Positions 606 to 42,215 of a stretch of DNA of 64,000 nt are shown piece by piece. Source of the stretch: Candidatus Poseidoniaceae archaeon (lineage in GTDB: Archaea; Thermoplasmatota; Poseidoniia; Poseidoniales; Poseidoniaceae). The DNA lies in contig CALHIR010000010.1 in the NCBI GenBank assembly GCA_938030705.1, forward strand, positions 47,130-111,129, read 5' to 3'. The notes under the pieces are model-generated. The model saw nothing but the letters and a program-made list of their open reading frames with translations. It did not search any database and had not been told where the DNA came from. The translations under genes were made by a program, and so were the position numbers. How positions within the stretch are numbered: position 1 is the stretch's first letter; each line of letters begins with the position of its first letter.

Positions 606-5273
<4,668 letters not shown>

Positions 5274-5277
<4 letters not shown>

Positions 5278-18064: not shown

Positions 18065-19747
18065 ATGTCTGAAGGCAAATACGCTGACTATGTCGAGGCC
18101 GTGCAGAAAGAATGCCCGGAAGCTGATGCGAAGGAAATCGCTGAGGCTTTCGCTAAGTACGAGCAGGAGTTTTACATCCCCCCGCAGGATGCCATGCGTT
18201 CGGTGCTTCGCCGATTCCAAAGCGGTACTTCGCCAACCCCAACAGGGAGTGGAACGACGCCCCGAGAGACCAAGAAAGTCGCTGGTCTTTCGGAACTAAC
18301 GGGCAACGACCGAGACGTTGAGATCGAAGTGGCCATCATCACCCACAACATCCGCGACCAAATGATTCGTGGTGAAGAAAAGCAAATCGCCTTTGGTATG
18401 CTCGAGGATAATCCGTGGGAAGAAAACGGTCAACGCACCCGTTGGGACTACAAGGATTGGGGCCCCCACGCGAACCTTGCTTCGGGAAGCATCGTTCGAA
18501 TTGAGGGCGCCAGCGTGAACGAATACAACGGTAAAATGTCGTTGAACATCAATCAATCCACCCGTATCGTCGTTCTGAAAGAAGGTGTGGCTACCGAGGT
18601 ATCTTCCAACGACCCCATCAACATCGACACCATTCCCAAGGAAGGCTACATTTGTGTTGTTGGCCGCGTGTTGGCCAGCCGACCAGACCAAATTCACCGA
18701 AAGGATGGTTCAGGCTCCATCGATGTCGTTCGTGGACGCCTTGCTGACGATACGGGAACCATCGGCTTTCTTTCATGGGAGCCATTTGAGCACGAAGTCG
18801 GCACCTTGTTGAAAATTGATGGTGCTCAGGTTCGGAGTTTCAGAGACACGCCAGAATTGAATTTTGGCCGCACCACGCGAATCGAAGTGTTTCATGACAC
18901 CAACTTTGCCAACCTCGAAACATTGGCTCAGAGTACTAAAACGGACATTGCAGGCCTACGGGACGGTTCCCGAGATGTGGACGCCGTTGTCCAAATCACG
19001 GAGATCACCAAGCGAACGTTCGAGCGAGATGGCGAAGAGAAATTCCTGTGGTCTGGTCAGATTGCCGACCCAACGGGTCGTTGCCGAATCAGCATTTGGG
19101 ACGGCCTTCCGTTTGAAGAGGGCGACTTGCCTGTTACATTGGAAATCCGGGGTGCAAGGGTTCGAGCCTGGCAGGGCATTCCAGACATTACCGTCGATAA
19201 GGCCGACCAGCTCACGGTGTTGGATACGCCACCTTGGGACGATGACATGGACCTCACCAATCACTCCGTCGACGTCCCGTTGACCGAAGTCGTGGCTGGC
19301 CCAAGTCGTGTCGGCATGAAAACCGGGGGGGTGCTCGTAAGCGTCCGAGAGGACTCAGGCTTCATTCTCCGATGCACGGAGTGCCGCCGCGTTCTGCGGG
19401 AGGGAGCGTGTTTTGATCACGGTGCGAACGAAGGAAACGAGGATATTCGTCTTCGAATGGTCATGGATAACGACGGTGTGACCGCAGCTGTTCTCGTGAA
19501 CAAAGAGGCGACGCTTGCCGCTTTGGAACTGACCTATGAAGACATGAAAGCAAAGGTCGAGGAACTCGGCGACCTCGGGTTTGTCCAGTTGGTACGTGAA
19601 CGTGTGCTTGGACGCCGCGTCCACGTTTCTGGTCGCAGTATTGTTGATGAGCAGGGCGCCATGGTGTTAGCCGATGGTTTCCAAATCGAACAACATGACG
19701 CCCAAATGCGGGCGTCTGAATTGCGAGCACAATGGGGGTGGGCTTGA
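18065..19747 (+). CDS. rpa: replication protein A (ssDNA-binding, multi-OB with zinc finger)
   Basis: 560 aa. Archaeal RPA N-terminus (MSEGKYADYVEAV...). Several OB folds. C4-type zinc motif CTECRRV...CFDHG. Confidence 0.8.
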   Translation: MSEGKYADYVEAVQKECPEADAKEIAEAFAKYEQEFYIPPQDAMRSVLRRFQSGTSPTPTGSGTTPRETKKVAGLSELTGNDRDVEIEVAIITHNIRDQMIRGEEKQIAFGMLEDNPWEENGQRTRWDYKDWGPHANLASGSIVRIEGASVNEYNGKMSLNINQSTRIVVLKEGVATEVSSNDPINIDTIPKEGYICVVGRVLASRPDQIHRKDGSGSIDVVRGRLADDTGTIGFLSWEPFEHEVGTLLKIDGAQVRSFRDTPELNFGRTTRIEVFHDTNFANLETLAQSTKTDIAGLRDGSRDVDAVVQITEITKRTFERDGEEKFLWSGQIADPTGRCRISIWDGLPFEEGDLPVTLEIRGARVRAWQGIPDITVDKADQLTVLDTPPWDDDMDLTNHSVDVPLTEVVAGPSRVGMKTGGVLVSVREDSGFILRCTECRRVLREGACFDHGANEGNEDIRLRMVMDNDGVTAAVLVNKEATLAALELTYEDMKAKVEELGDLGFVQLVRERVLGRRVHVSGRSIVDEQGAMVLADGFQIEQHDAQMRASELRAQWGWA

Positions 19748-20658
19748 TGGAGCGAGCAAGAATTGCCCGTCAACCGGCTCATCTTTTACTCGCTTCTGAA
19801 TTTGGAAGTGCGACGCTCCATGAGAAGGGTTCGGGTGAATACGACCCGTCTTTTGTTATCACCAAACTCGGTGCAAAAGTCAACCGTATTGTCGCAGCAG
19901 GTTTGCTTGAACGTTTGGAATTGCGGGAAACCAGCAACGGGTCTTCGCTCTACCAAGGGCAACTGAGAGACCCAACCGGGCTTCATTACTTCTCGATTGG
20001 AGAATACAATTCCGAGATGATGCAAGAGCTGGCCCACCAGTGGACCGAACGTCTCGACGATGGAGAGCCCCTTCTGGTGATGATGACTTCCAAGACCCGT
20101 TGGTACCAAACCGACGAGGGGGCGGTCTACACCTCATTGCGGCCCGAAGAAGCATGCGTGGTAAAGCGAGAAATCTATGCGAACTGGCTGTTGGATGCCT
20201 GCGAGGCGACCATGGCCCGCATGAACCAATTCACGTCCTCCCTGGAGGTGGAGCCGACGCTCGATGCCTTTGCTCGGGCTGAACTTCCTTCCAGTCTCCT
20301 TGCGGCTCGCAATCATTACGGCGAGGTGGACCTTGAACCATTCAAGCTCAATTTGATGCAGGCGCTGGACATAGCCGAAGGGAAAATTGAGGCGGCCACA
20401 ACGCCCCCTCCTGTCATGTCGCTGCCCGATGAGCCAGCCGCCACTTCAGAGGGGGGCCAGAACGTTGAGGCATTTTTGCTTCAAGCGATTGGGCATTTGG
20501 ATCAAGGCGAGGGCGTAACCTTCGACACGCTCTTGAAGAACGCCGTGGCTCGTGGTTTTGTTCGTGAGGTCGCTGAAGCCAAACTCGAAGAGATGCTCGA
20601 CGGCGGAACCCTTGATGAACCACGATTTGGGTGGTTCAGACTTGCCGCCAATGAATAA
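19732..20658 (+). CDS. RPA-associated protein (COG3390-like, OB fold)
   Basis: 308 aa. Overlaps the rpa stop by 16 nt. OB-like N-terminal half. Matches the rpa-rpap operon arrangement known in euryarchaea. Confidence 0.45.
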   Translation: MGVGLMERARIARQPAHLLLASEFGSATLHEKGSGEYDPSFVITKLGAKVNRIVAAGLLERLELRETSNGSSLYQGQLRDPTGLHYFSIGEYNSEMMQELAHQWTERLDDGEPLLVMMTSKTRWYQTDEGAVYTSLRPEEACVVKREIYANWLLDACEATMARMNQFTSSLEVEPTLDAFARAELPSSLLAARNHYGEVDLEPFKLNLMQALDIAEGKIEAATTPPPVMSLPDEPAATSEGGQNVEAFLLQAIGHLDQGEGVTFDTLLKNAVARGFVREVAEAKLEEMLDGGTLDEPRFGWFRLAANE

Positions 20659-20696
20659 TTTGGCTCCAACACATTCAAGTTCTTCTCACGCTGTGG

Positions 20697-21068
20697 TTGG
20701 AACAGGGGTCAAACATGGCTGGAATGGATTTCTTTATTCGCCCCGCATCGGGCACATCAAGTTCTGACTGGGTTCGAATTGCGAACGCTGACATCAAAGT
20801 GAGAATGACACGACGACTGACACGTACGGTCATCAGAGGTCAAGAAGGCGATGATTTGCACGATGAAGGTTCAGAATCGACCATGTACACCGTCCGTGGT
20901 GAGTTGAGCATTGATGAATACAAGCGAATCGTTGCCATGTTCCGCACCGGTCAACCGTACATTCACGATCCCTTTGAAGAGCGAGATGTAAAAGTGATCT
21001 TCGCCGTAATGGAGTACGACAGCTCAAATGAGAGTTTCCACTTTGAACTGCTTGAAGACGTGATTTGA
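20697..21068 (+). CDS. hypothetical protein (first gene of pilus-like operon)
   Basis: 123 aa. A 5-nt gap to the T2SSF-domain gene suggests co-transcription. Confidence 0.4.
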   Translation: MEQGSNMAGMDFFIRPASGTSSSDWVRIANADIKVRMTRRLTRTVIRGQEGDDLHDEGSESTMYTVRGELSIDEYKRIVAMFRTGQPYIHDPFEERDVKVIFAVMEYDSSNESFHFELLEDVI

Positions 21069-21072
21069 GGAG

Positions 21073-21660
21073 TTGATTGACGTGCGTGAACTGGAGGAAA
21101 AGCGAGAACTCCTCTATGTCATTCGCACCATGGACGTCCTGATGTCTTCTGGCGTGGGTTTGGAAGCGGCGCTTCACACCATTGGTCGGGGCGGCTATGG
21201 CATCATATCCGAAGATTTCTCATCGATGATGAAGCGGTTGCGAAAGGGTACCGGTGGTGGTATTGACAAGGAATTGAAGTCCATGATGAAAACGGCGCAA
21301 TCCTCTGGATACAAGCGCCTCCTCAACACCCTTTACACGAACGTTACACAAAATACGGATTTGGTTGAAACCCTGAAAAAGCAGGGTGCAAGGATGGAAG
21401 AAGACCGCTCTGCAGAGGTTGAAAAATACATCGAAACACTTGGTGGCGTCCCCGAAACCCTTCTTTCTATAGGAATGATTGGGCCGATTATTCTCGCCAT
21501 TGTTGGCTTGATTCCTCAACTGATGCCAAGTGACGGCTCGCTCATATCCTTCCCGGATGCAGCGGTCATGAGCAGTGTGGTGAACATGGGCTTGTTGGTG
21601 ACCCTTGTTTGCATGGCGCTCATCGGTCTCAAGGCGCACACAAAAGACCCGGGCTTGTGA
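21073..21660 (+). CDS. type II secretion system F-domain membrane protein (TadB/TadC/FlaJ-like), N-terminal half
   Basis: 195 aa. T2SSF helical domain (LYVIRTMDVLMSSGVGLEAALHTIG) followed by a TM bundle. Confidence 0.65.
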   Translation: MIDVRELEEKRELLYVIRTMDVLMSSGVGLEAALHTIGRGGYGIISEDFSSMMKRLRKGTGGGIDKELKSMMKTAQSSGYKRLLNTLYTNVTQNTDLVETLKKQGARMEEDRSAEVEKYIETLGGVPETLLSIGMIGPIILAIVGLIPQLMPSDGSLISFPDAAVMSSVVNMGLLVTLVCMALIGLKAHTKDPGL

Positions 21661-21669
21661 GGTGAACTG

Positions 21670-22401
21670 ATGCTGTTTGGTTTCCTCGAAACGTTCAATG
21701 AAACGCCGCTCCTTCTGTACTTGGCGGTGATCGCCATCGCATGTGCCGGGGGAGGCATCCCCCCAATGCTGGAGCGTCGGCGTCGCCGAGCGATTGAAAA
21801 CGCCCTCCCAACATTCCTTGAAGCGCTTTCTGATTCCGTGGGGGCCGGGCGTGGTTTGCAAGAAGCCATGATGGAACAATCAGAGTCCAGCGACGGCCTC
21901 CTGCCCTCCTTGCTCTCTGAAACCCTAAAGGAAGCCCATGCGTCTTCCTTCGAAGCAAGCCTCACTGCGTTCGCTGCCAAAACCCGCTCTAGCCAAGTTC
22001 AGCGCGTCATGATGTTGATTGAGACCGCCATACAACAGGATTCCAGTCTGCGCGATATCTTGAGTGATTTAAGCCGAGATTACGAGCGACTCAACGACCT
22101 AATGAACCAGCGAGAGAGTGAACTCTCAGGGCGAGGCATGCTCATCATCATCTTTGTCAGCGTTGGCTTACCTGTTCTGATTGCCTTTATTGTCGGCCTG
22201 TTCGCACCGGCCAGCAAAGGGTTCCAAATTACTGGTTTCAACCAAACTTTCAGCCTCTTTTTCGCCGCCGCATCTGCAGTTGGCGTCGGTGTTTCCGGAC
22301 GCATGATGGGTCGTCTCAGAGATACGTTGTGGTGGCTTCCCATGTGGATGGCCATCTCCATGGGGCTCTATCTTGGAGCCGTCAAAGCCGTAGGAGGTTA
22401 A
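21670..22401 (+). CDS. type II secretion system F-domain membrane protein, C-terminal half
   Basis: 243 aa. Second T2SSF domain plus TM helices. In the same reading frame as 21073..21660, separated from it only by a TGA and 9 nt. Confidence 0.65.
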   Translation: MLFGFLETFNETPLLLYLAVIAIACAGGGIPPMLERRRRRAIENALPTFLEALSDSVGAGRGLQEAMMEQSESSDGLLPSLLSETLKEAHASSFEASLTAFAAKTRSSQVQRVMMLIETAIQQDSSLRDILSDLSRDYERLNDLMNQRESELSGRGMLIIIFVSVGLPVLIAFIVGLFAPASKGFQITGFNQTFSLFFAAASAVGVGVSGRMMGRLRDTLWWLPMWMAISMGLYLGAVKAVGG

Positions 22402-22404
22402 TGC

Positions 22405-23646
22405 ATGTCAGAACAAATTTTGGAACAATACGGAAGAGTGACCATTTACACCGAAGCCAATCACCCTTCTCCAATCTACCATGTTGAGGGTGAAATCCAG
22501 GCCAATCCATACGGTGATCTTGCCGCTTTGTTTGAAGACGATGCCCTTGAAGAGGTGATGTACAACGGCGGAACCCAATGTGTGAAGGTCGCCCACCGGA
22601 ACCATGGAATGTGCCGAACCAATATTTGGATTGACGATGAATCCGGCCTTCAAATCGCCAAGAACATCGCCTCATTCACCAACGTGCCTTTGGGTGATGG
22701 TCCTGGGCTTGTGCCCATCTTCGACGGCCGTCTTCCCGACGGGTCCCGTGTCAACGGAACCATCCCTCCGGTCTCGCCTGACGGGCCAACGCTAACGATT
22801 CGTAAGTTCAAGGAAGACCCGCTCACCATGATCGACCTCGTGAACTTCGGCACGGTGAATTCCCGCTTGGCCGCCATGATGTGGGTCTGGATTGAAGGGC
22901 TTGACAGTCGTCCAGCCAACTTTGTCATCGCAGGTGGAACCGGTTCAGGTAAAACCACGACGCTGAACTGTCTCGGCATGTACATTCCGTGGTCCCGTCG
23001 GCTTCTGACGGTCGAAGACACCGCTGAATTGCAAGTCTATCACGACCACTGGCTCCGTATGGAAACTCGCCGTGAGCGCCCCGATGGAACCCAGGAAGTT
23101 GACATGAACGATTGCCTAAAGTCAAGCCTGCGTATGCGACCTGACCGCATCATCGTCGGTGAAGTTCGCGGACCGGAGTGCGCCACTTTACTCACGGCCA
23201 TGAACACGGGACACGACGGTTCTTTTGGCTCGCTCCACGCCAACACGGCTCAAGAAACGGTGACTCGTATGATCAATCCACCGATGAGCGTACCGCCCAT
23301 CATGCTGAGCGGTCTCGACCTCATCATCATTCAAGCCCGGCTCCACGTCAACGGAAAAACGGCCCGAAAAATCACCGAAGTAGCAGAAGTTGCTGGGATG
23401 GAAGGCGACAAACCTCGTCTGAACGCCATTTGGAAGTACAATGCTGCAACCGACCAAATTGAAGAAACTGGCATTCCATCCAAACTCCGGGAAACCATCT
23501 GCAATGCAGCTGGCGTCACCCCCGATGTCTTCGAGAGGCATGTCGCACAACGACAAGCCATCATTGAGGACCTCTGCCAGCGTGGTATTTCAGATATCCA
23601 AACGGTGACTTCGGTGGTGCAGAACTTTTACGCACAGCAGCACTGA
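22405..23646 (+). CDS. type II/IV secretion system ATPase (TadA/VirB11/FlaI family)
   Basis: 413 aa. Walker A (IAGGTGSGKTTTLN), Asp box, Walker B (DRIIVGEVRG), His box (GHDGSFGSLHAN). Confidence 0.85.
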   Translation: MSEQILEQYGRVTIYTEANHPSPIYHVEGEIQANPYGDLAALFEDDALEEVMYNGGTQCVKVAHRNHGMCRTNIWIDDESGLQIAKNIASFTNVPLGDGPGLVPIFDGRLPDGSRVNGTIPPVSPDGPTLTIRKFKEDPLTMIDLVNFGTVNSRLAAMMWVWIEGLDSRPANFVIAGGTGSGKTTTLNCLGMYIPWSRRLLTVEDTAELQVYHDHWLRMETRRERPDGTQEVDMNDCLKSSLRMRPDRIIVGEVRGPECATLLTAMNTGHDGSFGSLHANTAQETVTRMINPPMSVPPIMLSGLDLIIIQARLHVNGKTARKITEVAEVAGMEGDKPRLNAIWKYNAATDQIEETGIPSKLRETICNAAGVTPDVFERHVAQRQAIIEDLCQRGISDIQTVTSVVQNFYAQQH

Positions 23647-23647
23647 A

Positions 23648-25384
23648 TCATCCATTCAGGCGGTTGAGCAGTTCATCAACACGGTCGATTTTTCCTCGGA
23701 TACGTGCAAGACTCTCCGAGGCATCGGACACCGATTCTGCAACTTCTCTTTCCTCGTCGGGCGAAGAGACTGGGTCTGGTTTGAAACTGGCAGCGAGCGA
23801 TTTCAACTCGGTCACAATGGCATCAACTTCCGTTTCGGTTACCAAAACACCCGGTGCGATGCGTGGAATCTCACTGGGTGAGATATAACCGAGTTCAGCA
23901 CCCAAGATACCTGCACAGGCCAACACTCGTGGGCGAAGTTGGGCGGTGTTGACATCGTATCCCTTCGATTCAAGGAAGCGAATCACGAGCGCTTGCTGGG
24001 CTTCATCAAAGCCTTCTTCCCCAGATTCAAGGATGGTTTGAACGAGTTCCTCAAAAGAGGCGATGTTGCGTTCGAGACGCTCTATGGTCATGCGCTCGTT
24101 TTCCGGCATGTGGACCGCTCCGCGATGGAGGATTCTCATCATGCGCTGGCGACGCTGAACAACTGGGTCGTTGAGAGCCTGTGATTCAGCGATTTCAATA
24201 TGGAGGTCAAACAGGGCATGCAAGCGCCCGGAGACGCTTGGAACACGGAGGTCAAGGTTCAGGTCTCTTCCTTCTTGCTCGAAGGCCATTCGTGCCTTCA
24301 CGACGTCCGTTGCGTGAAGTGCGAGAATGTTCTCTAATCGGTCTCGCAGGGTGCTGCGAACCTCCTCAAACCGTCGCAGAGCTTCTCGTTCGCTCCAAGA
24401 TTGCGGCAAGGCAATCGCCGCATTGCTTTCGTTTTGAACTTTGAAATCAAGTTCCATGATCATCTGTGCGACCGCTTGATGCACCTGCGGGAGGTCGGTG
24501 GCAAAACCCTGGCTTCGCAAGGATTGAATGAAGGCGTTCATGTCCTCTTGATTGGTGGTCGAACTGACCATAAGGAAATCACGGGCCATGGCATGGATTT
24601 CTGCGGTCCGCTCCCGGAGTTCAATCAATGCGGTTTCGACTTCAAGGCTGTGGGTTTCATCTCCGCTTGTATGTTGAATCATCGGCGGTACGTCGCTGGT
24701 GTCTTCGGCTGGTTCAGGGCGAAGTTGGTGTTCAAGTTCGGCATCGCTTCGTGAGGATGAAACATCGTGGCCGATGCTGGCAAGGTCTTCTTTGAGGGAA
24801 ACCTCCTCCTCAAACGTCCATCCTTCGTCATGGCCTTCCACAAAGGTCGAGACGGTCTCTTCCAATGTTTCGGGGGCTTGGGGCGCCATCACAGCGGCCG
24901 CTTTTGGTACGCTGACGGGTCCACGAGGTCTTCGGAGGCTTTTCTTGACTTTGCCCCACGCATTTTCTTGCGAGGCCAGGACGCCGGCGACCCGAGCGAG
25001 GAGGGCTTGTTTATTTCCAGAAAGCGTGAGTTCGAGGTCTTTGCACATGGCGTGAAGCTCGTCTTTGGTCATCTCGTCAAGGCGTTCAATGGCGAGGGAT
25101 TTGGGGTCGTGGTTCAAATGAAGGTGCAGTCGCTGCCTTCTCGCCTTGATGGAACCTGACTTTTTAATTCCGAACAGGCCCAAAATCTCTCCCAAGTCGC
25201 TGTTAGGGATGCTTCGTAGTCCAGCAGGCGAAAAATCCCAATCGGGGAAAATGAGATGTTGAATCAACCGTGCACGCAAGGATTCAACCGGTCCGGATTT
25301 AGCTATCCCGTGTTCTTGGGCGAGGGTTTTCAGATCGTCAAAACGGGCTTGGTAGAGTTGGCCCAACAACGCTGATGTGTCCAT
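23648..25384 (-). CDS. SAP-domain-containing coiled-coil protein
   Basis: Two SAP-like helix-extension-helix motifs (LKTLAQEHGIAKSGPVESLRARLIQHL; MTKDELHAMCKDLELTLSGNKQALLARVAGVL). The long acidic/helical remainder has no further family match. Start trimmed to Met33. Confidence 0.5.
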   Translation of the reverse strand: MDTSALLGQLYQARFDDLKTLAQEHGIAKSGPVESLRARLIQHLIFPDWDFSPAGLRSIPNSDLGEILGLFGIKKSGSIKARRQRLHLHLNHDPKSLAIERLDEMTKDELHAMCKDLELTLSGNKQALLARVAGVLASQENAWGKVKKSLRRPRGPVSVPKAAAVMAPQAPETLEETVSTFVEGHDEGWTFEEEVSLKEDLASIGHDVSSSRSDAELEHQLRPEPAEDTSDVPPMIQHTSGDETHSLEVETALIELRERTAEIHAMARDFLMVSSTTNQEDMNAFIQSLRSQGFATDLPQVHQAVAQMIMELDFKVQNESNAAIALPQSWSEREALRRFEEVRSTLRDRLENILALHATDVVKARMAFEQEGRDLNLDLRVPSVSGRLHALFDLHIEIAESQALNDPVVQRRQRMMRILHRGAVHMPENERMTIERLERNIASFEELVQTILESGEEGFDEAQQALVIRFLESKGYDVNTAQLRPRVLACAGILGAELGYISPSEIPRIAPGVLVTETEVDAIVTELKSLAASFKPDPVSSPDEEREVAESVSDASESLARIRGKIDRVDELLNRLNG

Positions 25385-25495
25385 TGATGCCCCACCTCTG
25401 CGGCTTTTCCCGCATTGAAAGCATATATGTCTTCGCTGTCCGACCATGCTAAGAGTGCAGGTTCTGGCGGCTGTTTGCATATGCCGAGAGGGTTG

Positions 25496-26599
25496 TCAAT
25501 CATCCAAATCCATGAGACGAGGGCTCGGGTCCATGAACGAGCGTGGCATGCCCCGAATGTTTCGTTTGGTTCCTTCGTGGTCGGTGGTCATGACCGAGAG
25601 CAGTTCCATGAATTCTTTGAGCAAGTTGACCATGCCAAGGTGGCTATTTTCGGGTTGAACAATCCGTTCACAGGCTGCCGTGACGGTGCCGCTGGAGTTC
25701 AACGTTTCAATGAGCATTTCAACGCGAGGGCCACTTTTGAACACCCCTCGCTTCTTATTGGGGTCGAGCAAGGACGTCAGAAGGGCTTCGTCGCCATCCT
25801 TGGATGCCTTTTTCAAAAATGTTGAAATTTTTCGTTGCTCAATATAGGCGCCAACGATGGGTCGCAGTGATGGTTCTAAACTTTCGACCAAGGCTCGTTC
25901 TAATCGGTAAGCCAGTTCAGCGCTCGGGTCAAGCATTTCCTTGATGCTTGCTTTCGGAAAACCTTTTCTCGACACCAAGAGGGTGAAGCCGTGCAAAGGC
26001 GGCGGGACAAATCGCTCCCGGTTATTTTCGGTTTGATCTCGCTGCAGCCCCAAGGTGTGGCGGCGTCCTTTCATGCGATGACCTGCGTGAATGGCCCGAG
26101 GCACGATGAACCCGTCCAGATGACCTTGGAGTCGTTGTTCCTCTATCCAGGGCCAAATGTCTTCGTCATCCAGTTCCTTGACCAACGCCCCTGCTCCTAT
26201 CCTGTCAGCGACCTCATCGATGGTTTCCAACACAATATCCGGGCGCATACGTCGCGTTTGCCGGCGAAGAAGTTCATGCTCACACATAACGAGAGCGCCT
26301 TGTTTCAAGTATTCGGGTTTGTCATCAGCAACCAAAACCCAGGTTGGCTCTTTTCGTGGCAGAAGCCCGGCTATGGTCAGGCCGTCAACATCGTGATTGG
26401 CCCAATCAAAGGCACTCATGGCGACGATATCGCCAATACCATCTCGAAGTGTTTGAATGGCCGTTTCAATGTGGGGGAGTTGCTTGAGGCGGAGGTCACG
26501 ATGTTTGCCATGCGTGCCCACAGCTCGCTCGATTTGAAGGCGAACGCCATCGTTCCTTGACGGCGTGGTGAGAATCACGAGATACTCACTTTTCTCCAT
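25496..26599 (-). CDS. hypothetical protein (weak phosphoesterase-like motifs)
   Basis: 367-aa core of ORF 25496..27088. The upstream 163 codons overlap the well-supported GGPP synthase gene and were trimmed to MEKSEYLVIL. GDIVAMSAFDWANHD and HAGH are suggestive but not diagnostic of a metallophosphoesterase. Confidence 0.4.
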   Translation of the reverse strand: MEKSEYLVILTTPSRNDGVRLQIERAVGTHGKHRDLRLKQLPHIETAIQTLRDGIGDIVAMSAFDWANHDVDGLTIAGLLPRKEPTWVLVADDKPEYLKQGALVMCEHELLRRQTRRMRPDIVLETIDEVADRIGAGALVKELDDEDIWPWIEEQRLQGHLDGFIVPRAIHAGHRMKGRRHTLGLQRDQTENNRERFVPPPLHGFTLLVSRKGFPKASIKEMLDPSAELAYRLERALVESLEPSLRPIVGAYIEQRKISTFLKKASKDGDEALLTSLLDPNKKRGVFKSGPRVEMLIETLNSSGTVTAACERIVQPENSHLGMVNLLKEFMELLSVMTTDHEGTKRNIRGMPRSFMDPSPRLMDLDD

Positions 26600-26680
26600 C
26601 GGTTCACCTCGGTTAGGGTCGCCCCTTACATGTCGTGGGCGTGGACGACCGGTTAAGAAGCCCACCCTCGTGGCAAGGTC

Positions 26681-27664
26681 GTGGGCAGCAGTCTTGAGGT
26701 GCTTCAATCGGCACTGGAATCCATGCGTGAGGAAGTCAACCAGGCTCTGCGTGACCTCATCAGCGACGAACTCGAGGCCGGGGCGGGTGAGGTGGCCCTT
26801 GAAGCAGGGCGTGTCTTGAATGCGGGTGGAAAACGGCTTCGTCCGATTTTGTTCCTGTTGGCTTACCAACTGGCGGGCGGCAAAAACAGAGAAGAGGTCA
26901 TGCCACTGGCGTTGGCCTTCGAACTCATTCACACCGCTACGCTTGTTCATGATGATATCAACGACGAAGCAAAACAGCGTCGAGGAATTCCAACCATCCA
27001 CGCTCAAGCAGGCCAGGCCAAAGCCGTCATCGCTGGCGATTGGCTTTTCGTCCAAGGCTTCGGCCTTGGTGGCCGCTACTCCGCACAAATTGTCTCCATT
27101 ATCGCTCGTTGTTGTGCGAACATTGCCGTCTCAGAATTCCATCAACTTGACCATGTGTTGAACCTTGCGACTTCGCCCGAAGATTACCTTTCCATCGTCC
27201 GTGGAAAAACTGCCGGGCCGTTCGCTTCAGGATGCTACAGTGCTGGTTTGGTCGCAGGTTTGGAGGACGAGAAAGCCAAGGCGCTGGAACGGTTCGGAAT
27301 GGAACTGGGTGTGGCCTTCCAGCTCGTGGATGACCTCTTGGATCTGCGCGGTGATGAACGCATGGGCAAGCCCCGAGGTGCCGATGTTTACGAAGGCAAG
27401 ATGACCCTCCCGTTAATTCACGCGCTGACCCTCTCTCACGGGCAACACCGTGAACGCCTGTCCCAAATTCTCGAAGATTTCTCGGATGAGAAGTTCGATG
27501 ACCTGATGGTGCTGCTGGAGCGTTCAGACAGCATGGAATACGCTGAAATTTTGGTCCGAACCCATCTTGAACGGGCGCAAGCAGAACTGCATCGGTTCCC
27601 CGATAGCGAGGCCAAAGATTTGATGCTGCTCATCACAAACATTGTCAAAGATCGGCATGCTTGA
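26681..27664 (+). CDS. idsA: geranylgeranyl diphosphate synthase (polyprenyl synthetase)
   Basis: 327 aa. First aspartate-rich motif (LVHDDINDEAKQRRG) and second (FQLVDDLLD). GGKRLRP N-terminal motif. Confidence 0.9.
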   Translation: MGSSLEVLQSALESMREEVNQALRDLISDELEAGAGEVALEAGRVLNAGGKRLRPILFLLAYQLAGGKNREEVMPLALAFELIHTATLVHDDINDEAKQRRGIPTIHAQAGQAKAVIAGDWLFVQGFGLGGRYSAQIVSIIARCCANIAVSEFHQLDHVLNLATSPEDYLSIVRGKTAGPFASGCYSAGLVAGLEDEKAKALERFGMELGVAFQLVDDLLDLRGDERMGKPRGADVYEGKMTLPLIHALTLSHGQHRERLSQILEDFSDEKFDDLMVLLERSDSMEYAEILVRTHLERAQAELHRFPDSEAKDLMLLITNIVKDRHA

Positions 27665-28891: not shown

Positions 28892-29383
28892 ATGCGAGGG
28901 CTGATGCGACGGGATGAAGATGCCGTTAGCCCCGTGATTGCGACCGTCCTCCTTCTCGCCATCACCGTCGTGCTTTCCAGCATGGTGTTCGTTTTGATGC
29001 AAGGGGCCTTGACCACGGTTGAGAAATCGGCCCCACAGGCAACCGTCAGCGTGCGGGCGCTCGACAACGGTTTCCACGTCGTGAGGATCACCAGCCTTGA
29101 CCAATCCATTGACCCCGCCCGTCTTCAATTCGATTTGCTCCCTGCGAACGTGACCGAATCCCTTCTCATCCGCGGTCAAGTTTCTGATGCAGATGTTTAC
29201 GGCGTTATCGGGACGGAAATCTCGTTCCATGATAGGGATGCAGGCTATTCGGTCACCCAAGGTGATTACTTCGTCATCGATTCCGAAACGATTGGGGCTG
29301 ACGACGGCACCTGGCGTTTCCGTCTGGTTGAGAAGACATCAGATACGCTCATTGTTGATGTTTCGCTCCCTGCGATGGCCTGA
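28892..29383 (+). CDS. archaeal type IV pilin-like protein (class III signal peptide, DUF1628-like)
   Basis: 163 aa. N-terminus RRDEDAVSPVIATVLLLAITVVLSSMVFVL matches the archaeal prepilin pattern (A-VSPVI-hydrophobic). Confidence 0.7.
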   Translation: MRGLMRRDEDAVSPVIATVLLLAITVVLSSMVFVLMQGALTTVEKSAPQATVSVRALDNGFHVVRITSLDQSIDPARLQFDLLPANVTESLLIRGQVSDADVYGVIGTEISFHDRDAGYSVTQGDYFVIDSETIGADDGTWRFRLVEKTSDTLIVDVSLPAMA

Positions 29384-31890: not shown

Positions 31891-33909
31891 TCAGCCATGA
31901 CGCCCAAAGTGGTGGTCCAAACTATCAATGGAGATTCGCAACGATGTCGGGCGTCCATGGACGCAGGCCCAAGGGTTTTGAATTCGGCGCATGTCATCAA
32001 GGAGGCGTCGCATTTCGGGTAAGGAAAGCGATTCATTGGCTTTCACGGCCCCTCGACAGGCGTTCATGAAGGCGATGTGGTCTTTCTTTGCTTCCATGGT
32101 TTCAAGCGGGCCACCATCAAGCGCTAAATCTTGAAGCAAATCGAGAAGGAAGGGTTTGATTTGGTCGCCCCCGAGGAGTTGCGGCGAGGCATTCAACACC
32201 CACATCTCTTTCTCTTTTGAGAGGTGGAACCCAAGGTCATGGAGCCGCTCATGATGTGCATCGACGAGGGCGGATTGCCTCGCATCGAGGTTCAGAGGAA
32301 GCGGAGAGAGCCGTTGTTGTGGCTCCCACGCCTGGCCACTGTGCCGCAATCGTTCGTATCGGACACGCTCGTGCAGGGCGTGCTGGTCGATGAGGAGCAA
32401 CTCGTCTTCAGCTTGGACAAGAATGTAGGAGTCCGCAAATTGTGCCAAAGGTTCCATGTGCGGAAGATCGTTCAAGTCTCCTTCGAGAGGGGCTTCTTCG
32501 CTCGGCCTTGACGTGGACCCAGTACCTGCATGTCGGTGCAGGGCGCGTTCAGCAGAAGAAAGAGGTGCAGCCATTGGTGCTGAAGGAAGGTTTGGGAGAA
32601 CCCCTTGTCCAAGAGGGGACGCTGACACAGGTCGCTCCTTTTCCGCCTTTGCTTGTTCTTCCGCTTCTTGGCCAACGAGGTTCAATTGCCGACCGGCAGC
32701 AAGCGCCCAGGCCGGTGGCCGAACGGAAGCTGTGGCGGTCTTGCCCTCCGGTTTTGCCGTCATGCCCGCCGCCGTTGAGATGGAGGCGTCAACCGTGGTT
32801 TCAACAGGCGGTCCGGTAAAGTAAGTTTCAACTGGTTTAGCAATCGATCCGCCTGAGAGTCCTTGAAGGCCAGGGATTTCACCCGTCGCATCGGGCTCGG
32901 TCGGCACGGCTTCAAGGGTGTAGGCAATGGCTCGTTCAAGCCGCTCCAAAACTCGCCAAGAATGACGAAGACGCACTTCCCGCTTCGTTGGATGGACGTT
33001 CACGTCCACTTCCTCGGGAGGGCATTGGAGGTTCACCACGGCCAACGGGTGGCGGCCTTGCATAAGGCGCGTTTTGTAGCCTCGGCGGATGGCTTGCAAA
33101 AACGGGCCTGCGCCCACAGGACGGCGGTTGATGAGAACGTGGATGTCGTCTCCCTTTCCTCGCGTGATGTCGGGTGTGCTGATCCACCCGCTCCAGCGTT
33201 CCTCGCCGGGGGCCTCCTCATCTTCGGGGGGTAATTTGAGTTCAACCAATTCAGTGGCCTGCGCACCCATGATGTCGTAAAGTCGGTCAAGCATGTTTTC
33301 CGTCGCCGGAACATTGAGCAGTGTTCTGCGTTCAGTTTTCAGGTGGAAACCGCAAGTTGGATGGGCAAGTGCATGGTCAACAACCACGTCCACGATTCGG
33401 GCCGTTTCTGTTTCTGGTCGTCGTTGGAACGCGAGTCGCGCAGGGGTGTTTTGAAAGAGATGTTCGACCGAAATGATGGTTCCGTTGGCCATTCCGTAGG
33501 GCTGGGCTTCGGACTTAATTCCGTCCTCCATCACGATGCTTGCACCCTGCGAACCTTCGGGTTTACTGGCTATTTTGAGGCGAGAGACCATACCAATGCT
33601 GGCCAACGCTTCACCCCGAAAACCGAGCGAGAGAATGGAGGCCAAGTCTTCTTTGCTGCTGAGTTTGGAGGTGGCGTGCCGGTCAAGGGCCAGGGAAAGG
33701 TCAGCTTGAGCAATCCCGCTGCCGTTGTCTTCAACCTCAAGACGGTCAAATCCGCCCCGTTCAACGGTGATGACAATGGAAGTTGAGCCCGCATCGAGGC
33801 TGTTTTCAATCAACTCTTTGACCACCTGTGCGGGGCGTTCGACAACTTCACCCGCTGCAATGAAACCGATGGTGGCTTCATCCAGCTGCCTGATTTTGTC
33901 TGGCTTCAT
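31891..33909 (-). CDS. mutL: DNA mismatch repair protein MutL
   Basis: 672 aa. GHKL ATPase N-terminus (VVKELIENSLDAGST, DNGSGI, GFRGEALASI). Pro/Ala-rich linker. Dimerisation C-terminus. Confidence 0.9.
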   Translation of the reverse strand: MKPDKIRQLDEATIGFIAAGEVVERPAQVVKELIENSLDAGSTSIVITVERGGFDRLEVEDNGSGIAQADLSLALDRHATSKLSSKEDLASILSLGFRGEALASIGMVSRLKIASKPEGSQGASIVMEDGIKSEAQPYGMANGTIISVEHLFQNTPARLAFQRRPETETARIVDVVVDHALAHPTCGFHLKTERRTLLNVPATENMLDRLYDIMGAQATELVELKLPPEDEEAPGEERWSGWISTPDITRGKGDDIHVLINRRPVGAGPFLQAIRRGYKTRLMQGRHPLAVVNLQCPPEEVDVNVHPTKREVRLRHSWRVLERLERAIAYTLEAVPTEPDATGEIPGLQGLSGGSIAKPVETYFTGPPVETTVDASISTAAGMTAKPEGKTATASVRPPAWALAAGRQLNLVGQEAEEQAKAEKERPVSASPLGQGVLPNLPSAPMAAPLSSAERALHRHAGTGSTSRPSEEAPLEGDLNDLPHMEPLAQFADSYILVQAEDELLLIDQHALHERVRYERLRHSGQAWEPQQRLSPLPLNLDARQSALVDAHHERLHDLGFHLSKEKEMWVLNASPQLLGGDQIKPFLLDLLQDLALDGGPLETMEAKKDHIAFMNACRGAVKANESLSLPEMRRLLDDMRRIQNPWACVHGRPTSLRISIDSLDHHFGRHG

Positions 33910-36560
33910 GTTCGCTCCTCCATGTCATGTTTCAGGGCATAAAGGACCTCGAGGGCTTGACGCGGGCTCAGATCGTCAACATTGGTCTCTTGCAGGCGTT
34001 GCATCATTCGCTCAACACTTGGCGACAACGCAGGCGGCGTTGGCGAAGAAGTTTTCATGGCTGCAGCTGCGAAATACCCCATCAGGCTGGCTTGGCCCGA
34101 ATCTCTTGATTGTGGTGCGCCGTGTTCACCCGCTTTTGCACCTCCTGCTTGCTGCTCAAGGAAGGCGAGTAAGTCGCTTGCACGCTCCACTACGCTTCGG
34201 GGTAGGCCAGCCAAAGCAGCGACTTGAACACCGTATGAATCATCGCATGGCCCATCTGCAACGGTGTGGAGGAAGCGAAGTTTCCCGTCGACTTGAGCCA
34301 CTTGGACATGGACATTGCACAACCCGTTTACCTCGCCCTCCAGGCCGATGAGTTGGTGGTAATGAGTGGCAAAAAGCGTCCGGGCACCGATTCTTGAGCA
34401 GATGTCCTCCGTGACGGACCACGCAATGGAAAGGCCGTCGAAAGTGGAGGTGCCTCGTCCAATCTCGTCCAACAGGACCAGGGAACGCTGCGTGGCCCGC
34501 TTGAGGATGTGGGCTACCTCGATCATTTCCATCATGAAGGTCGAACGCCCCCGCTTGAGGTCGTCACTTGCTCCTACCCGTGTAAAAATCCGGTCAACCA
34601 ATCCCACCTTGGCTTGCTTGGCGGGAACAAAACATCCGGCCTGTGCAAGAACAGTGACCAAGGCCACCGTCCGAAGGTAGGTGGATTTCCCACCCATATT
34701 GGGGCCCGTGATGAGCAGAAAACTCCGCTTTTGGTTCATCGAAACATCGTTGGGGACAAAACCGGACTGAGTTTCCAACACGGGGTGGCGAGCGCCATCA
34801 AGTTGGATTTGATGCTTGTCCGTGATTTCGGGTTTGGTCCAATTACGTTCCCTGCTCACCGATGCGAAGCACTGCAACACATCGATGGAAGCGACCCGTC
34901 GGGCGATGTCAGCCAAGGTCGCCGCCTGAGTGCCGCAATAGGTGCGAAGTTCGAGGAACCGGCGGTACTCAAGTTCTTTCAGTTTTGAATCGGCGGTGAG
35001 CAACAAGTCATCCCGCTCAACCAATTCCTCCGTAGTGTAGCGAGAGCCGTTGGTCAATTGTTGCTTCCTTCGCCACGTGTTTGGAACTTTTTCGATGTGC
35101 GCTTGGGTGACCTCGATGAACCACCCCACTTGTCGGTTGTTCTTGACCTTGAGCGAAGGGATAGCCAATTCCTCTCTGAGCCGTTGTTCAAGGTTGGTGA
35201 ACCAAGCCTTTCCTTCTGACGTGACGCTTCGCAAGCGGTCAACTTCCTCGTCCACCCCGGCTCGTAGGAGTCCTCCGTCCCGCAAACCGAGGGGAGGATG
35301 TTCGTCCAAGGTGTTGTGAATGGTCTCCCTCATCTCTTCAAGTTGGTCGAGGCCTTCACTGAGGTGGATGAGGAGTGGGTCCTGGCTGTCATTGCACCAT
35401 TGCACGAGGGCGGGCATCCGCTCAAGGGCATGGGCTGTGGCGACCAAATCCCTTGCATTACTGCGTTGGTAAGCGAGTTGGGTGGCCAATCGCTCCATGT
35501 CTCGGATTCCCTTCAAGGAGGTGCGCATGCCGTCCAACCGGCGAGCCGATCGTGTCAGGGTCGCCACGGCTTGATGGCGCGTTTGAATGGCCTCCGTGTT
35601 GGAAAGCGGATGCAAGAGCCAGGTTTTCAGAAGCCGCCTCCCCATGGCGGTTCGACATCGGTTGAGGGTGGAAAGCAAACTTCCGTCGTATTCCCCTGCC
35701 AAGGTTGACGTCAATTCCAAATTCCGTAGGGTGGTTTGGTCCAACAGCAGGTGGCCTTGTTCTTCCAGAAGTTCAACGTCTTGAAGGGGGATGTCTTGGC
35801 GCATGTGAACCGTCGCGAGGTAGTCAGCTGCGAGGCCTGTAGCCGAAATGGCCAACGGAGCATGGTCCAGGTCCAAGTGCCCCAAATCCGCCACATCAAG
35901 CATGCTTCGCAATCGTTCTTCTCGTTTTGCTTGGCTGAGTTGATGTTGGCTCACCATGGTAGACTCCAAGCGGGGAAAGAGGGGGGCGAGGTGGTCGTTT
36001 TCGGCGTCTTTTGGTGAGATCACAAGCTCGCTTGGTTGCCATCGGAGAAGGTCATCTTGGAGGCGAGTGAATCGTTCGGGCCCCTCGTGTGAACTCGCCC
36101 ACGCCTTCCCGGTGGATGCATCAAGCACGGCGAGGCCCAAGGCATCTGGGCCCAGCACAACACCGGCGAGCAGGGACTGCTCATCACCTTCCAACAACCC
36201 CTCCTCATAGAGGCTGCCGGGCGTGTAAACTCTGGTCGCCACTCGCTCCAGTAATTTGGCTCCAGGTCTCAATTCTTCTTCTTGCTCTGCTACCGTCACT
36301 TTGTAGCCAGCCCGGAGCATGGTGCGCAGATGGTCTTCAAGCCCGTGCCATGGGAAGCCCGCCATGGGGATGGGTTGGTCGGCGTTTTTGTCTCGAGAGG
36401 TCAGCGAAAGGCCAAGCACATCCGCCGCTACTTCTGCATCGTCGTGAAAGAGTTCGTAGAAATCTCCCATTCGGAAGAAGAGAACCGTGTCAGGATGCTG
36501 TTCTTTGATGTCAAAGAACTGGTCCATCATTCCTCTTTTTGACATGGTTGCACCCTCCAT
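33906..36560 (-). CDS. mutS: DNA mismatch repair protein MutS
   Basis: 884 aa. Mismatch-binding N-terminus (FFRMGDFYELF), Walker A (ITGPNMGGKSTYLR), DE (VLLDEIGRGTST), HTH C-terminus. 4-nt overlap with mutL. Confidence 0.92.
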   Translation of the reverse strand: MEGATMSKRGMMDQFFDIKEQHPDTVLFFRMGDFYELFHDDAEVAADVLGLSLTSRDKNADQPIPMAGFPWHGLEDHLRTMLRAGYKVTVAEQEEELRPGAKLLERVATRVYTPGSLYEEGLLEGDEQSLLAGVVLGPDALGLAVLDASTGKAWASSHEGPERFTRLQDDLLRWQPSELVISPKDAENDHLAPLFPRLESTMVSQHQLSQAKREERLRSMLDVADLGHLDLDHAPLAISATGLAADYLATVHMRQDIPLQDVELLEEQGHLLLDQTTLRNLELTSTLAGEYDGSLLSTLNRCRTAMGRRLLKTWLLHPLSNTEAIQTRHQAVATLTRSARRLDGMRTSLKGIRDMERLATQLAYQRSNARDLVATAHALERMPALVQWCNDSQDPLLIHLSEGLDQLEEMRETIHNTLDEHPPLGLRDGGLLRAGVDEEVDRLRSVTSEGKAWFTNLEQRLREELAIPSLKVKNNRQVGWFIEVTQAHIEKVPNTWRRKQQLTNGSRYTTEELVERDDLLLTADSKLKELEYRRFLELRTYCGTQAATLADIARRVASIDVLQCFASVSRERNWTKPEITDKHQIQLDGARHPVLETQSGFVPNDVSMNQKRSFLLITGPNMGGKSTYLRTVALVTVLAQAGCFVPAKQAKVGLVDRIFTRVGASDDLKRGRSTFMMEMIEVAHILKRATQRSLVLLDEIGRGTSTFDGLSIAWSVTEDICSRIGARTLFATHYHQLIGLEGEVNGLCNVHVQVAQVDGKLRFLHTVADGPCDDSYGVQVAALAGLPRSVVERASDLLAFLEQQAGGAKAGEHGAPQSRDSGQASLMGYFAAAAMKTSSPTPPALSPSVERMMQRLQETNVDDLSPRQALEVLYALKHDMEERT

Positions 36561-42193: not shown

Positions 42194-42215
42194 ACCACCA
42201 TCAAGGCACTGAGGC

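Follow-up and report, generated by a model that had tools for sequence, protein, structure and literature searches.

A conserved four-gene cassette of Poseidoniales that probably encodes the core of a type IV pilus-like machine with a split platform

The DNA analyzed here is a stretch of 64 kb from a Candidatus Poseidoniaceae archaeon (contig CALHIR010000010.1 of assembly GCA_938030705.1), hereafter called the window; all coordinates given below are positions in this window, and statements on the absence of genes refer to its annotated parts. At positions 20715-23646 of the forward strand, the window contains a cassette of four co-directional and tightly packed open reading frames (ORFs), which we refer to as gene 1, F1, F2 and the ATPase gene (Table 1). 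An original prediction made from the letters of the window had described this cassette as a small protein followed by two T2SSF-domain halves and a short ATPase, and this gene order was confirmed by the ORFs and by Pfam searches. The same prediction gave a spacing of 3-9 nt throughout. This is correct for the 9 nt that separate F1 from F2 and for the 3 nt that separate F2 from the ATPase gene, but the first gap, between gene 1 and F1, is 13 nt and becomes 4 nt only if F1 is taken to start at an alternative TTG. In that case the F1 ORF spans 21073-21660, with the TTG at 21073; gene callers place the start at a GTG, at 21082. The mechanical ORF of gene 1 spans 20697-21068 and opens at a TTG at 20697; the most probable true start is the ATG at 20715, because the motif MAG.DFF opens all homologues. 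Shine-Dalgarno-like sequences (GGAG, GAGGTGA or GGAGGT) are located ahead of each internal gene of the cassette, and the sequence AGGGGT is found about 10 nt ahead of the gene 1 ATG. The cassette genes are real genes, since their dN/dS values (non-synonymous over synonymous substitution rates) against orthologues are about 0.01-0.08 where dS is unsaturated, with about 0.01 for the ATPase, and since ATPase copies identical to that of the window occur in assembly GCA_030836025.1 and on other contigs, which reach 335 kb in length. The four genes presumably delimit an operon.

Table 1. Coordinates of the cassette genes, the upstream element and the candidate pilin gene in the 64-kb window.
Feature	Position	Strand	Description
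Conserved non-coding element CCAACACATTCAAGTTCTTCTC	20666..20687	+	28-49 nt upstream of the gene 1 ATG
Gene 1	20715..21068	+	117 aa, acidic, soluble, without known family
Gene 2 (F1, platform N-half)	21082..21660	+	192 aa, one T2SSF domain, then two C-terminal transmembrane (TM) helices
Gene 3 (F2, platform C-half)	21670..22401	+	243 aa, one TM helix ahead of a single T2SSF domain, more TM helices after it
Gene 4 (ATPase)	22405..23646	+	413 aa, T2SSE/VirB11 superfamily
Class III signal prepilin	28892..29383	+	163 aa, Pilin_N/PilA-like

Both F1 and F2 match the Pfam T2SSF family, with E-values of 7e-11 and 2e-7, respectively. The two C-terminal TM segments of F1 correspond to residues 122-150 and 159-185. 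When the two proteins were aligned by hhalign with a full-length haloarchaeal platform protein of 679 aa, F1 mapped onto the N-terminal T2SSF repeat (positions 181-297; probability 96%) and F2 onto the C-terminal T2SSF repeat (positions 426-581; probability 95%). In addition, F2 weakly matches the C-terminal half of UpsF (positions 280-443 of the 484 positions of the NCBIfam model). BLASTP comparisons of F1 and F2 with TadB and TadC of Sinorhizobium were too weak for an assignment. Judged by this alignment, F1 and F2 correspond collinearly to the two halves of a normal archaeal platform protein, and the gene order, N-half and then C-half, is the outcome expected from a simple in situ fission. 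The polytopic platform with two T2SSF repeats that belongs to the core of a type IV filament system is present at this locus in the form of two genes, and the Pfam hits and the mapping onto the repeats bear out the two T2SSF-domain halves that had been predicted.

The product of the fourth gene matches Pfam T2SSE with an E-value of 3e-42, and its Walker A motif (GGTGSGKTT, residues 177-185), Asp box (200-209), Walker B motif (248-256) and His box (267-280) are intact. The Walker A sequence and the sequences MNTGHDGS and LHAN are those of CpaF, unlike those of FlaI or of GspE of Archaeoglobus (afGspE). Searches against the PDB returned CpaF with 218.8 bits, afGspE with 218.6 bits and FlaI of S. 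acidocaldarius with 152 bits; the ATPase is 42-46% identical to CpaF and 34% identical to the FlaI protein. Only about 35 residues precede its N2 domain, compared with 130-146 in FlaI, afGspE and CpaF, and its C-terminal 60 residues align to the archaeal protein alone. Among 72,556 plasmids, the top matches of the ATPase are bacterial CpaF proteins (43% identity), whereas haloarchaeal ATPases come first when afGspE is used as the query on the same plasmids. On the TadA model TIGR03819 the ATPase scores 206.9 bits, with a cut-off of 373, and on the model of the bindosome ATPase BasE it scores 144, with a cut-off of 1000.

The ATPase and its relatives are labelled "flagellar protein FlaI" by JGI, and an archaellum operon does exist at another place in Marine Group IIa (MGIIa) genomes (PMC6336850, PMC6461757). 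According to this JGI/KEGG-style annotation the cassette would be part of an archaellum, with the ATPase as FlaI and the membrane proteins as FlaJ. By bit score, the FlaI equivalog model is indeed the best NCBIfam match of the ATPase; however, the score of 251 bits is far under the cut-off of 550, and the match is limited to model positions 147-519. Because the first 146 positions of the model are unmatched, the N-terminal domain of FlaI is absent from the ATPase. We also placed the ATPase in a neighbour-joining tree of 22 sequences, which was based on 265 gap-free columns and rooted with TrbB and VirB11. In this tree, the ATPase of the window belongs to a clade of Thermoplasmatota, Poseidoniia and Hydrothermarchaeales sequences (84% bootstrap). 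FlaI, afGspE and the haloarchaeal ATPases form a separate clade (100% bootstrap), and so do the bacterial CpaF proteins (94% bootstrap), outside of which the window ATPase is also located. The tree excludes membership of the FlaI group. The placement of the ATPase relative to the Epd-like systems is left unsettled by the tree, because this is small and distance-based and was built without EpdL, CdiPE, AapE and UpsE; PilB3 was not part of it either. The phylogenetic check that had been proposed together with the original prediction thus separates the ATPase from the FlaI and CpaF clades, with UpsE and AapE outside its coverage.

Further evidence against an archaellum comes from the surroundings of the ATPase gene. 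The platform is split in two here, and no archaellin, FlaF/G/H/C/D/E/X or KaiC-like gene was found in the annotated parts of the 64 kb. Moreover, the cassette is found on a Marine Group IIb (MGIIb) contig. The archaellum operon is present in MGIIa and in a few MGIIb clades, and most MGIIb clades are devoid of it (PMC6336850, PMC6461757). We regard the archaellum interpretation as effectively excluded and attach hardly any weight to it. Consequently, the earlier assignment of a type IV pilus-like operon rather than an archaellum is upheld by the FlaI score, the tree, the lack of archaellum genes in the annotated parts of the window, the presence of the cassette in MGIIb and the nearby Pilin_N prepilin, which is syntenic in MGIIa (see below). 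The accompanying description of the ATPase as TadA/VirB11-type is adequate as far as its T2SSE/VirB11 superfamily and its CpaF-like motifs are concerned, but the protein does not reach the TadA cut-off and is not part of the CpaF clade. Automatic "FlaI" labels like the one on this gene can inflate the inferred presence of motility or of an archaellum.

A candidate for the filament subunit is encoded 5 kb downstream of the cassette, with four unrelated genes in between. This protein matches Pilin_N with an E-value of 5e-10 and is above the cut-off of TIGR02537 (33.8 bits versus 20). Its class III motif, RRDEDA followed by VSPVIATVLLLAITVV, is the sole class III signal detected in the window by a regular-expression scan. 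The sequence matches subunits of solved archaeal type IV pilus (T4P) filaments, namely 8fj5, 8gi2 (Natrinema PilA2), 9myg and 8rey; the last of these, a weak hit to a chain of 135 aa, is probably CdiPB. A single-sequence AlphaFold2 (AF2) model of the pilin was poor (pLDDT 53) but showed, as expected, a long helix at the N-terminus and beta strands after it. In MGIIa, the prepilin gene is syntenic wherever the flank extends to it. The N-terminal helix, AVSPVIATVLLLAITV.LSSMVFV, is invariant, and the pilin head DVYG.IG..SFHDRDAGYSVT.GDYFVIDS is invariant too across sequences that are 63-99% identical overall. This conservation is unusual for the subunit of a surface filament and may reflect constraint on a surface used for binding or packing. 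The pilin contains one NVT sequon. The protein proposed originally as a candidate substrate is therefore a bona fide prepilin, and from its sequence type and position it may well be the substrate of the cassette motor.

An intact T2SSE ATPase, two T2SSF repeats and, outside the operon, a pilin with a class III signal are thus all encoded in this region, and we consider it likely that the locus encodes the core, cytoplasmic as well as membrane-bound, of an archaeal machine that assembles type IV pilus-like filaments. In such a machine, the ATPase would act as a membrane-associated hexamer, and F1 and F2 would jointly form the platform that in other archaea mostly consists of one FlaJ/TadC/PilC-like protein. 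ATP-driven movement of this platform would lift processed pilins from the membrane into the growing filament. The pilins would be encoded elsewhere, with the Pilin_N prepilin as the best candidate, and the latter would be cleaved after the EDA sequence by a peptidase encoded outside the window. By analogy with other archaeal T4P, adhesion to surfaces or cells would be the likeliest role. Gene 1 is probably co-transcribed with the other three genes, and its product may serve the motor as an accessory in the cytoplasm.

Several points weigh against this interpretation or parts of it. To our knowledge, filaments have not been seen on members of the Poseidoniales. A gene for a prepilin peptidase (A24: PibD/FlaK/EppA) was not found in the annotated parts of the window, and the MGIIb contig does not contain a pilin gene at the position of the candidate, whose link to the motor consists of proximity and family type only. 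Synteny is all that speaks for a role of gene 1 in a pilus machine, and none of its distant homologues is visibly followed by T2SSF genes. Finally, the order-wide retention and the very slow evolution of the cassette, even in the streamlined, free-living MGIIb, are unexpected for a dispensable adhesion organelle. The true role may differ from adhesion.

The extent of this conservation was determined for 80 genome loci that were recovered with gene 1, all of them from metagenome-assembled genomes (MAGs) of Poseidoniales. In 80/80 loci, as far as the contigs reach, the order TldD, RPA, a 308-aa gene, gene 1, F1, F2, ATPase and a convergent SAP-domain gene is invariant. The MGIIb contig keeps the same order, with gene 1 being 39% and the ATPase 73% identical, and the distance between gene 1 and F1 is 2-13 nt in both Poseidoniales families. 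Median identities to the window are 97% for the ATPase, 90% for gene 1, 86% for F2, 81% for F1, 76% for RPA and 72% for TldD. The dN values against orthologues are 0.02-0.10 for the ATPase, 0.04-0.15 for gene 1, 0.09-0.29 for F1/F2 and 0.15-0.32 for RPA, and the ATPase evolves 3-8 times slower than RPA. The cassette is the slowest-evolving and most conserved part of its block and is under strong purifying selection.

A type IV filament machine with a non-adhesive use, such as a short pseudopilus, the bindosome-like positioning of surface or solute-binding proteins, secretion or envelope biogenesis, would explain this near-housekeeping conservation. The retention of the cassette in both families amid a fixed housekeeping context, the unusually conserved pilin head and the weak similarity of the ATPase to BasE are in line with such a use. 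On the other hand, the BasE score is only a small part of the cut-off, the regular-expression scan revealed no class III solute-binding protein in the window, and the characterised relatives CdiP, Epd and PilB3/C3 make true pili (PMC12448462, PMC4858521). We therefore consider a non-adhesive use improbable, and a pilus-like assembly machine remains our preferred interpretation.

Close relatives of the ATPase carry the names Poseidoniales, Poseidoniaceae and Thalassarchaeaceae. ATPases that are 52-63% identical occur in MAGs labelled Thermoplasmata, Thermoplasmatales, Thermoplasmatota, Poseidoniia and Hydrothermarchaeales, where they are annotated as CpaF or TadA by PGAP and as FlaI by JGI. Every context that we fetched from outside the Poseidoniales contains two genes with a single T2SSF domain, encoding proteins of 180-197 and 242-266 aa, followed by the gene for an ATPase of 410-465 aa; on one of these contigs, about 1.1 kb lies between the T2SSF genes and the ATPase gene. 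Pilin genes and gene 1 are not adjacent to the module in these contexts, in which the neighbours are unrelated housekeeping genes. Because the module recurs across the fetched contexts, the F1-F2-ATPase core is a general feature of the Thermoplasmatota. Larger relatives of the ATPase, of roughly 790-800 aa, exist in Hydrothermarchaeales and related lineages. They combine two T2SSE stretches with a PilB3_C domain, as if two ATPases had been fused in tandem, which is reminiscent of the CdiP operon with its pair of distinct ATPases. A complete Poseidoniales block, with a gene 1 that is 98% identical, is present on contig NZEQ01000070.1 of a MAG labelled "Verrucomicrobiales bacterium ARS100", in which it is almost certainly a binning contaminant.

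The position of the cassette right after the RPA genes could suggest a pilus for DNA uptake or DNA transfer, and a DNA-uptake role had been offered in the original prediction as one of two possibilities. The order RPA, rpap (the 308-aa gene), gene 1, F1, F2 and ATPase is kept in both Poseidoniales families, and only 56 nt separate rpap from gene 1. However, the synteny spans the whole block from TldD to GGR, so that the adjacency to RPA is not specific. Outside the Poseidoniales the module is never located next to RPA, a conserved element stands between rpap and gene 1, and no ComEC-, DprA- or Ced-like genes were found in the annotated parts of the window. As nothing supports it specifically, we hold a role in DNA uptake or transfer to be very improbable. 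The RPA gene itself (560 aa, PRK07218-like) overlaps the conserved 308-aa ORF by 16 nt, and the two together span 18065-20658. The 308-aa protein matches no Pfam or NCBIfam family, and its position suggests an RPA-associated protein. The two genes lie ahead of the cassette in either Poseidoniales family, but not in other lineages.

Gene 1 is the only component of the cassette that belongs to no known family. Its product is acidic (pI 4.8) and soluble, 43 of its 117 columns are invariant, and it did not match any Pfam, NCBIfam, PHROG or PDB sequence. The group of its homologues is narrow: an indexed search yielded 192 hits, the few with a source name being from Poseidoniales or unclassified archaeal MAGs, a full scan of 1.84 billion representatives with a hidden Markov model yielded 66 hits, and 241 GTDB species genomes carry the gene. 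AF2 modelled the protein with confidence (pLDDT 86, pTM 0.76) as a beta-sandwich with a long hairpin, followed by a helix; the conserved tip of the hairpin, RRLTRTVIRGQEGDDLHDEGSES, is the least confident part of the model. Three independent structure searches, which included Foldseek against the PDB and against BFVD, ranked phage tail-tube, major-tail, Dit, tube-initiator and Hcp proteins at the top. In the Foldseek search against BFVD, TM scores were 0.45-0.63, with E-values of only 1e-3 to 1e-2. Gene 1 is thus predicted to adopt a tail-tube/Hcp-like fold. It resembles phage tail tube, Hcp and Dit-N proteins in this predicted fold, but differs from them in sequence and in gene context: tail genes or genes of a type VI secretion system are not present near gene 1, and no relative was found on the viral contigs of IMG/VR. 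A viral or defence gene was also considered and rejected on the lack of PHROG and PADLOC hits and of IMG/VR relatives. Likewise, an origin as the detached N-terminal domain of longer ATPases was rejected after hhalign against a 788-aa ATPase fusion gave nothing.

Gene 1 may be an unrelated passenger that shares the transcription unit and is not a component of the pilus, and we give this explanation somewhat less than an even chance. In other Thermoplasmatota the F1-F2-ATPase module works without gene 1, and its adjacency to the module is seen only in Poseidoniales, in which the whole region is syntenic anyway. Distant homologues of about 103 aa, from unidentified archaea, adjoin genes for ribosomal protein S3Ae, a large secreted protein or paired membrane proteins. 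Against a passenger, gene 1 stays within 2-13 nt of the F1 start in either family despite the low identity of its product between them, only the ATPase is more conserved than its product within MGIIa, and a conserved element precedes gene 1 and not F1. It is this tight, order-wide adjacency to F1, together with the position of the element, that links gene 1 to the motor. The core of the element, CAACACATT(C/G)AAG, is nearly invariant in about 73 distinct upstream sequences of Poseidoniaceae, while its flanks vary. The element is unique in the window, where matches with three mismatches occur at chance level, and it is a candidate promoter or regulator site of the cassette. A search for a regulatory motif common to the cassette and the pilin gene was negative: the 15-mer is unique in the window, and the short sequence TTCAAGT that both share is not significant.

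The gene 1 product may plausibly be a ring-forming or adaptor partner of the putative ATPase hexamer. A more far-reaching proposal is that it serves the ATPase as a dedicated partner in the cytoplasm, possibly in the form of a ring, and was recruited in the ancestor of the Poseidoniales, perhaps from a tailed-virus module, and that the four-gene machine is quasi-essential throughout the order. We put this forward tentatively, as an idea that is rather unlikely to be right in full. If true, the ocean's most abundant planktonic archaea would possess a quasi-essential surface system that has been overlooked because of the "FlaI" label. As it stands, the small protein with its predicted tail-tube fold is a concrete and testable candidate for a new motor accessory.

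These findings are relevant for the biology of Marine Group II (MGII), whose members have not been cultured although they rank with the most abundant archaea of the surface ocean. Their attachment potential has so far been discussed nearly only in terms of the archaellum operon. The MGII papers that we consulted treat only this operon (FlaA/B, G, H, I, J), and no description of the cassette was found in them (PMC6461757, PMC6336850, PMC6864105). The cassette equips both Poseidoniales families with a pilus-type motor, with a candidate pilin alongside.

The remainder of the window consists of housekeeping surroundings and includes genes for gyrase, RPA, MutS/MutL, GGPS/GGR, a tRNA synthetase and ETF. 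Although the window is archaeal, it contains bacterial-type genes for DNA gyrase B/A, at 624-5277 (+), and for MutL/MutS, at 31891-36560 (-). The 610-aa SAP-domain gene at 23648-25480 (-) is convergent with the ATPase gene, 1 nt separating the two stop codons, and is kept at the same place in MGIIa and MGIIb (38% identity). Next to it, the ORF at 25496-27088 (-) encodes 530 aa mechanically, whereas gene callers give a product of 367 aa; the long start is probably spurious, because an ORF for a 327-aa polyprenyl synthase (26681-27664) overlaps it on the opposite strand. Two adjoining PD-(D/E)XK proteins of 580 and about 617 aa are encoded at 40451-44099.

Comparison with known systems shows that the cassette shares with the archaellum (FlaI/ArlI, FlaJ/ArlJ) the ATPase and platform superfamilies and the logic of the class III signal. 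It differs from it by the lack of the FlaI N-terminal domain, by the split platform, and by the absence of FlaB/F/G/H from the annotated parts of the window, which make up most of it, and from the identical contigs.

The likeness to bacterial Tad systems (TadA/CpaF, TadB, TadC) goes further, as these also have two platform genes with a single T2SSF domain each and an ATPase with the motifs found here. In Sinorhizobium, however, the gene order is ATPase, TadB and TadC, as opposed to N-half, C-half and ATPase in the cassette, and the pilin of the window is of the 163-aa Pilin_N/PilA type and not a Flp/Epd pilin of 50-70 aa. A Flp pilin, TadV, TadZ/CpaE (a FlaH-like second ATPase) and the secretin RcpA/CpaC were not found in the annotated parts of the window. 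The term "Tad-like" used in the original prediction is therefore appropriate for the split platform and the CpaF-like motifs, but does not extend to membership of the Tad family, in view of the TadA cut-off, the CpaF clade, the long PilA-type pilin and the lack of TadZ and a secretin. The presence of an in situ split platform with a CpaF-like ATPase in Poseidoniia, other Thermoplasmatota and Hydrothermarchaeota bears on the proposed archaeal origin of Tad pili.

Among archaeal systems, the ATPases of haloarchaeal plasmids and afGspE belong to a separate clade and are 31-40% identical to the window ATPase; in the haloarchaeal system that we inspected, the platform is one protein of 679 aa and the ATPase has about 990 aa. 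Euryarchaeal loci of the PilB3/PilC3 type (clade 2) do not encode pilins of their own and use stand-alone PilA-family pilins in trans (PMC4858521). The PilB3/PilC3 system of Haloferax resembles the cassette in being an ATPase and platform module without pilins, served by Pilin_N pilins in trans and functioning in adhesion, and some Hydrothermarchaeales relatives of the window ATPase bear the Pfam domain PilB3_C. Epd-like systems (Methanococcus type, clade 1) and Tad systems are defined by a pair of platform genes that each encode a single T2SSF domain, which has been explained by gene fission, and the Epd platform genes precede the ATPase gene (PMC6668835). The order platform, platform, ATPase and the single-T2SSF platform genes are common to the cassette and the Methanococcus genes EpdJ, EpdK and EpdL. 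In the Epd system, however, the major pilin is short (~70 aa), as opposed to the long pilin found here, and a FlaH-like ATPase follows the motor; a second ATPase does not follow the cassette motor, because the convergent SAP-domain gene begins 1 nt past its stop codon.

The split-platform architecture of the CdiP, Epd and Tad-like kind is thus already known, and gene 1 is the part that it leaves unexplained. The CdiP pilus of Cuniculiplasma divulgatum (Thermoplasmatales) has been identified as a T4P by cryo-electron microscopy; its platform is made up of an N-half, CdiPFa, and a C-half, CdiPFb, and about 500 kb lie between the machinery and the pilin genes (PMC12448462). This system differs from the cassette in having two ATPases (CdiPE1/E2) instead of one and no reported counterpart of gene 1. 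It belongs to the same phylum and has in common with the cassette the order of the platform genes, N-half and then C-half, pilins remote from the machinery operon, and a class III signal pilin of roughly 135-160 aa. CdiPE and CdiPF were compared by their description only; the relatives of the window ATPase in Thermoplasmatales MAGs are about 55% identical and belong to the same clade. The closest precedent for the cassette is archaeal and is formed by the CdiP pilus and the Epd-like systems.

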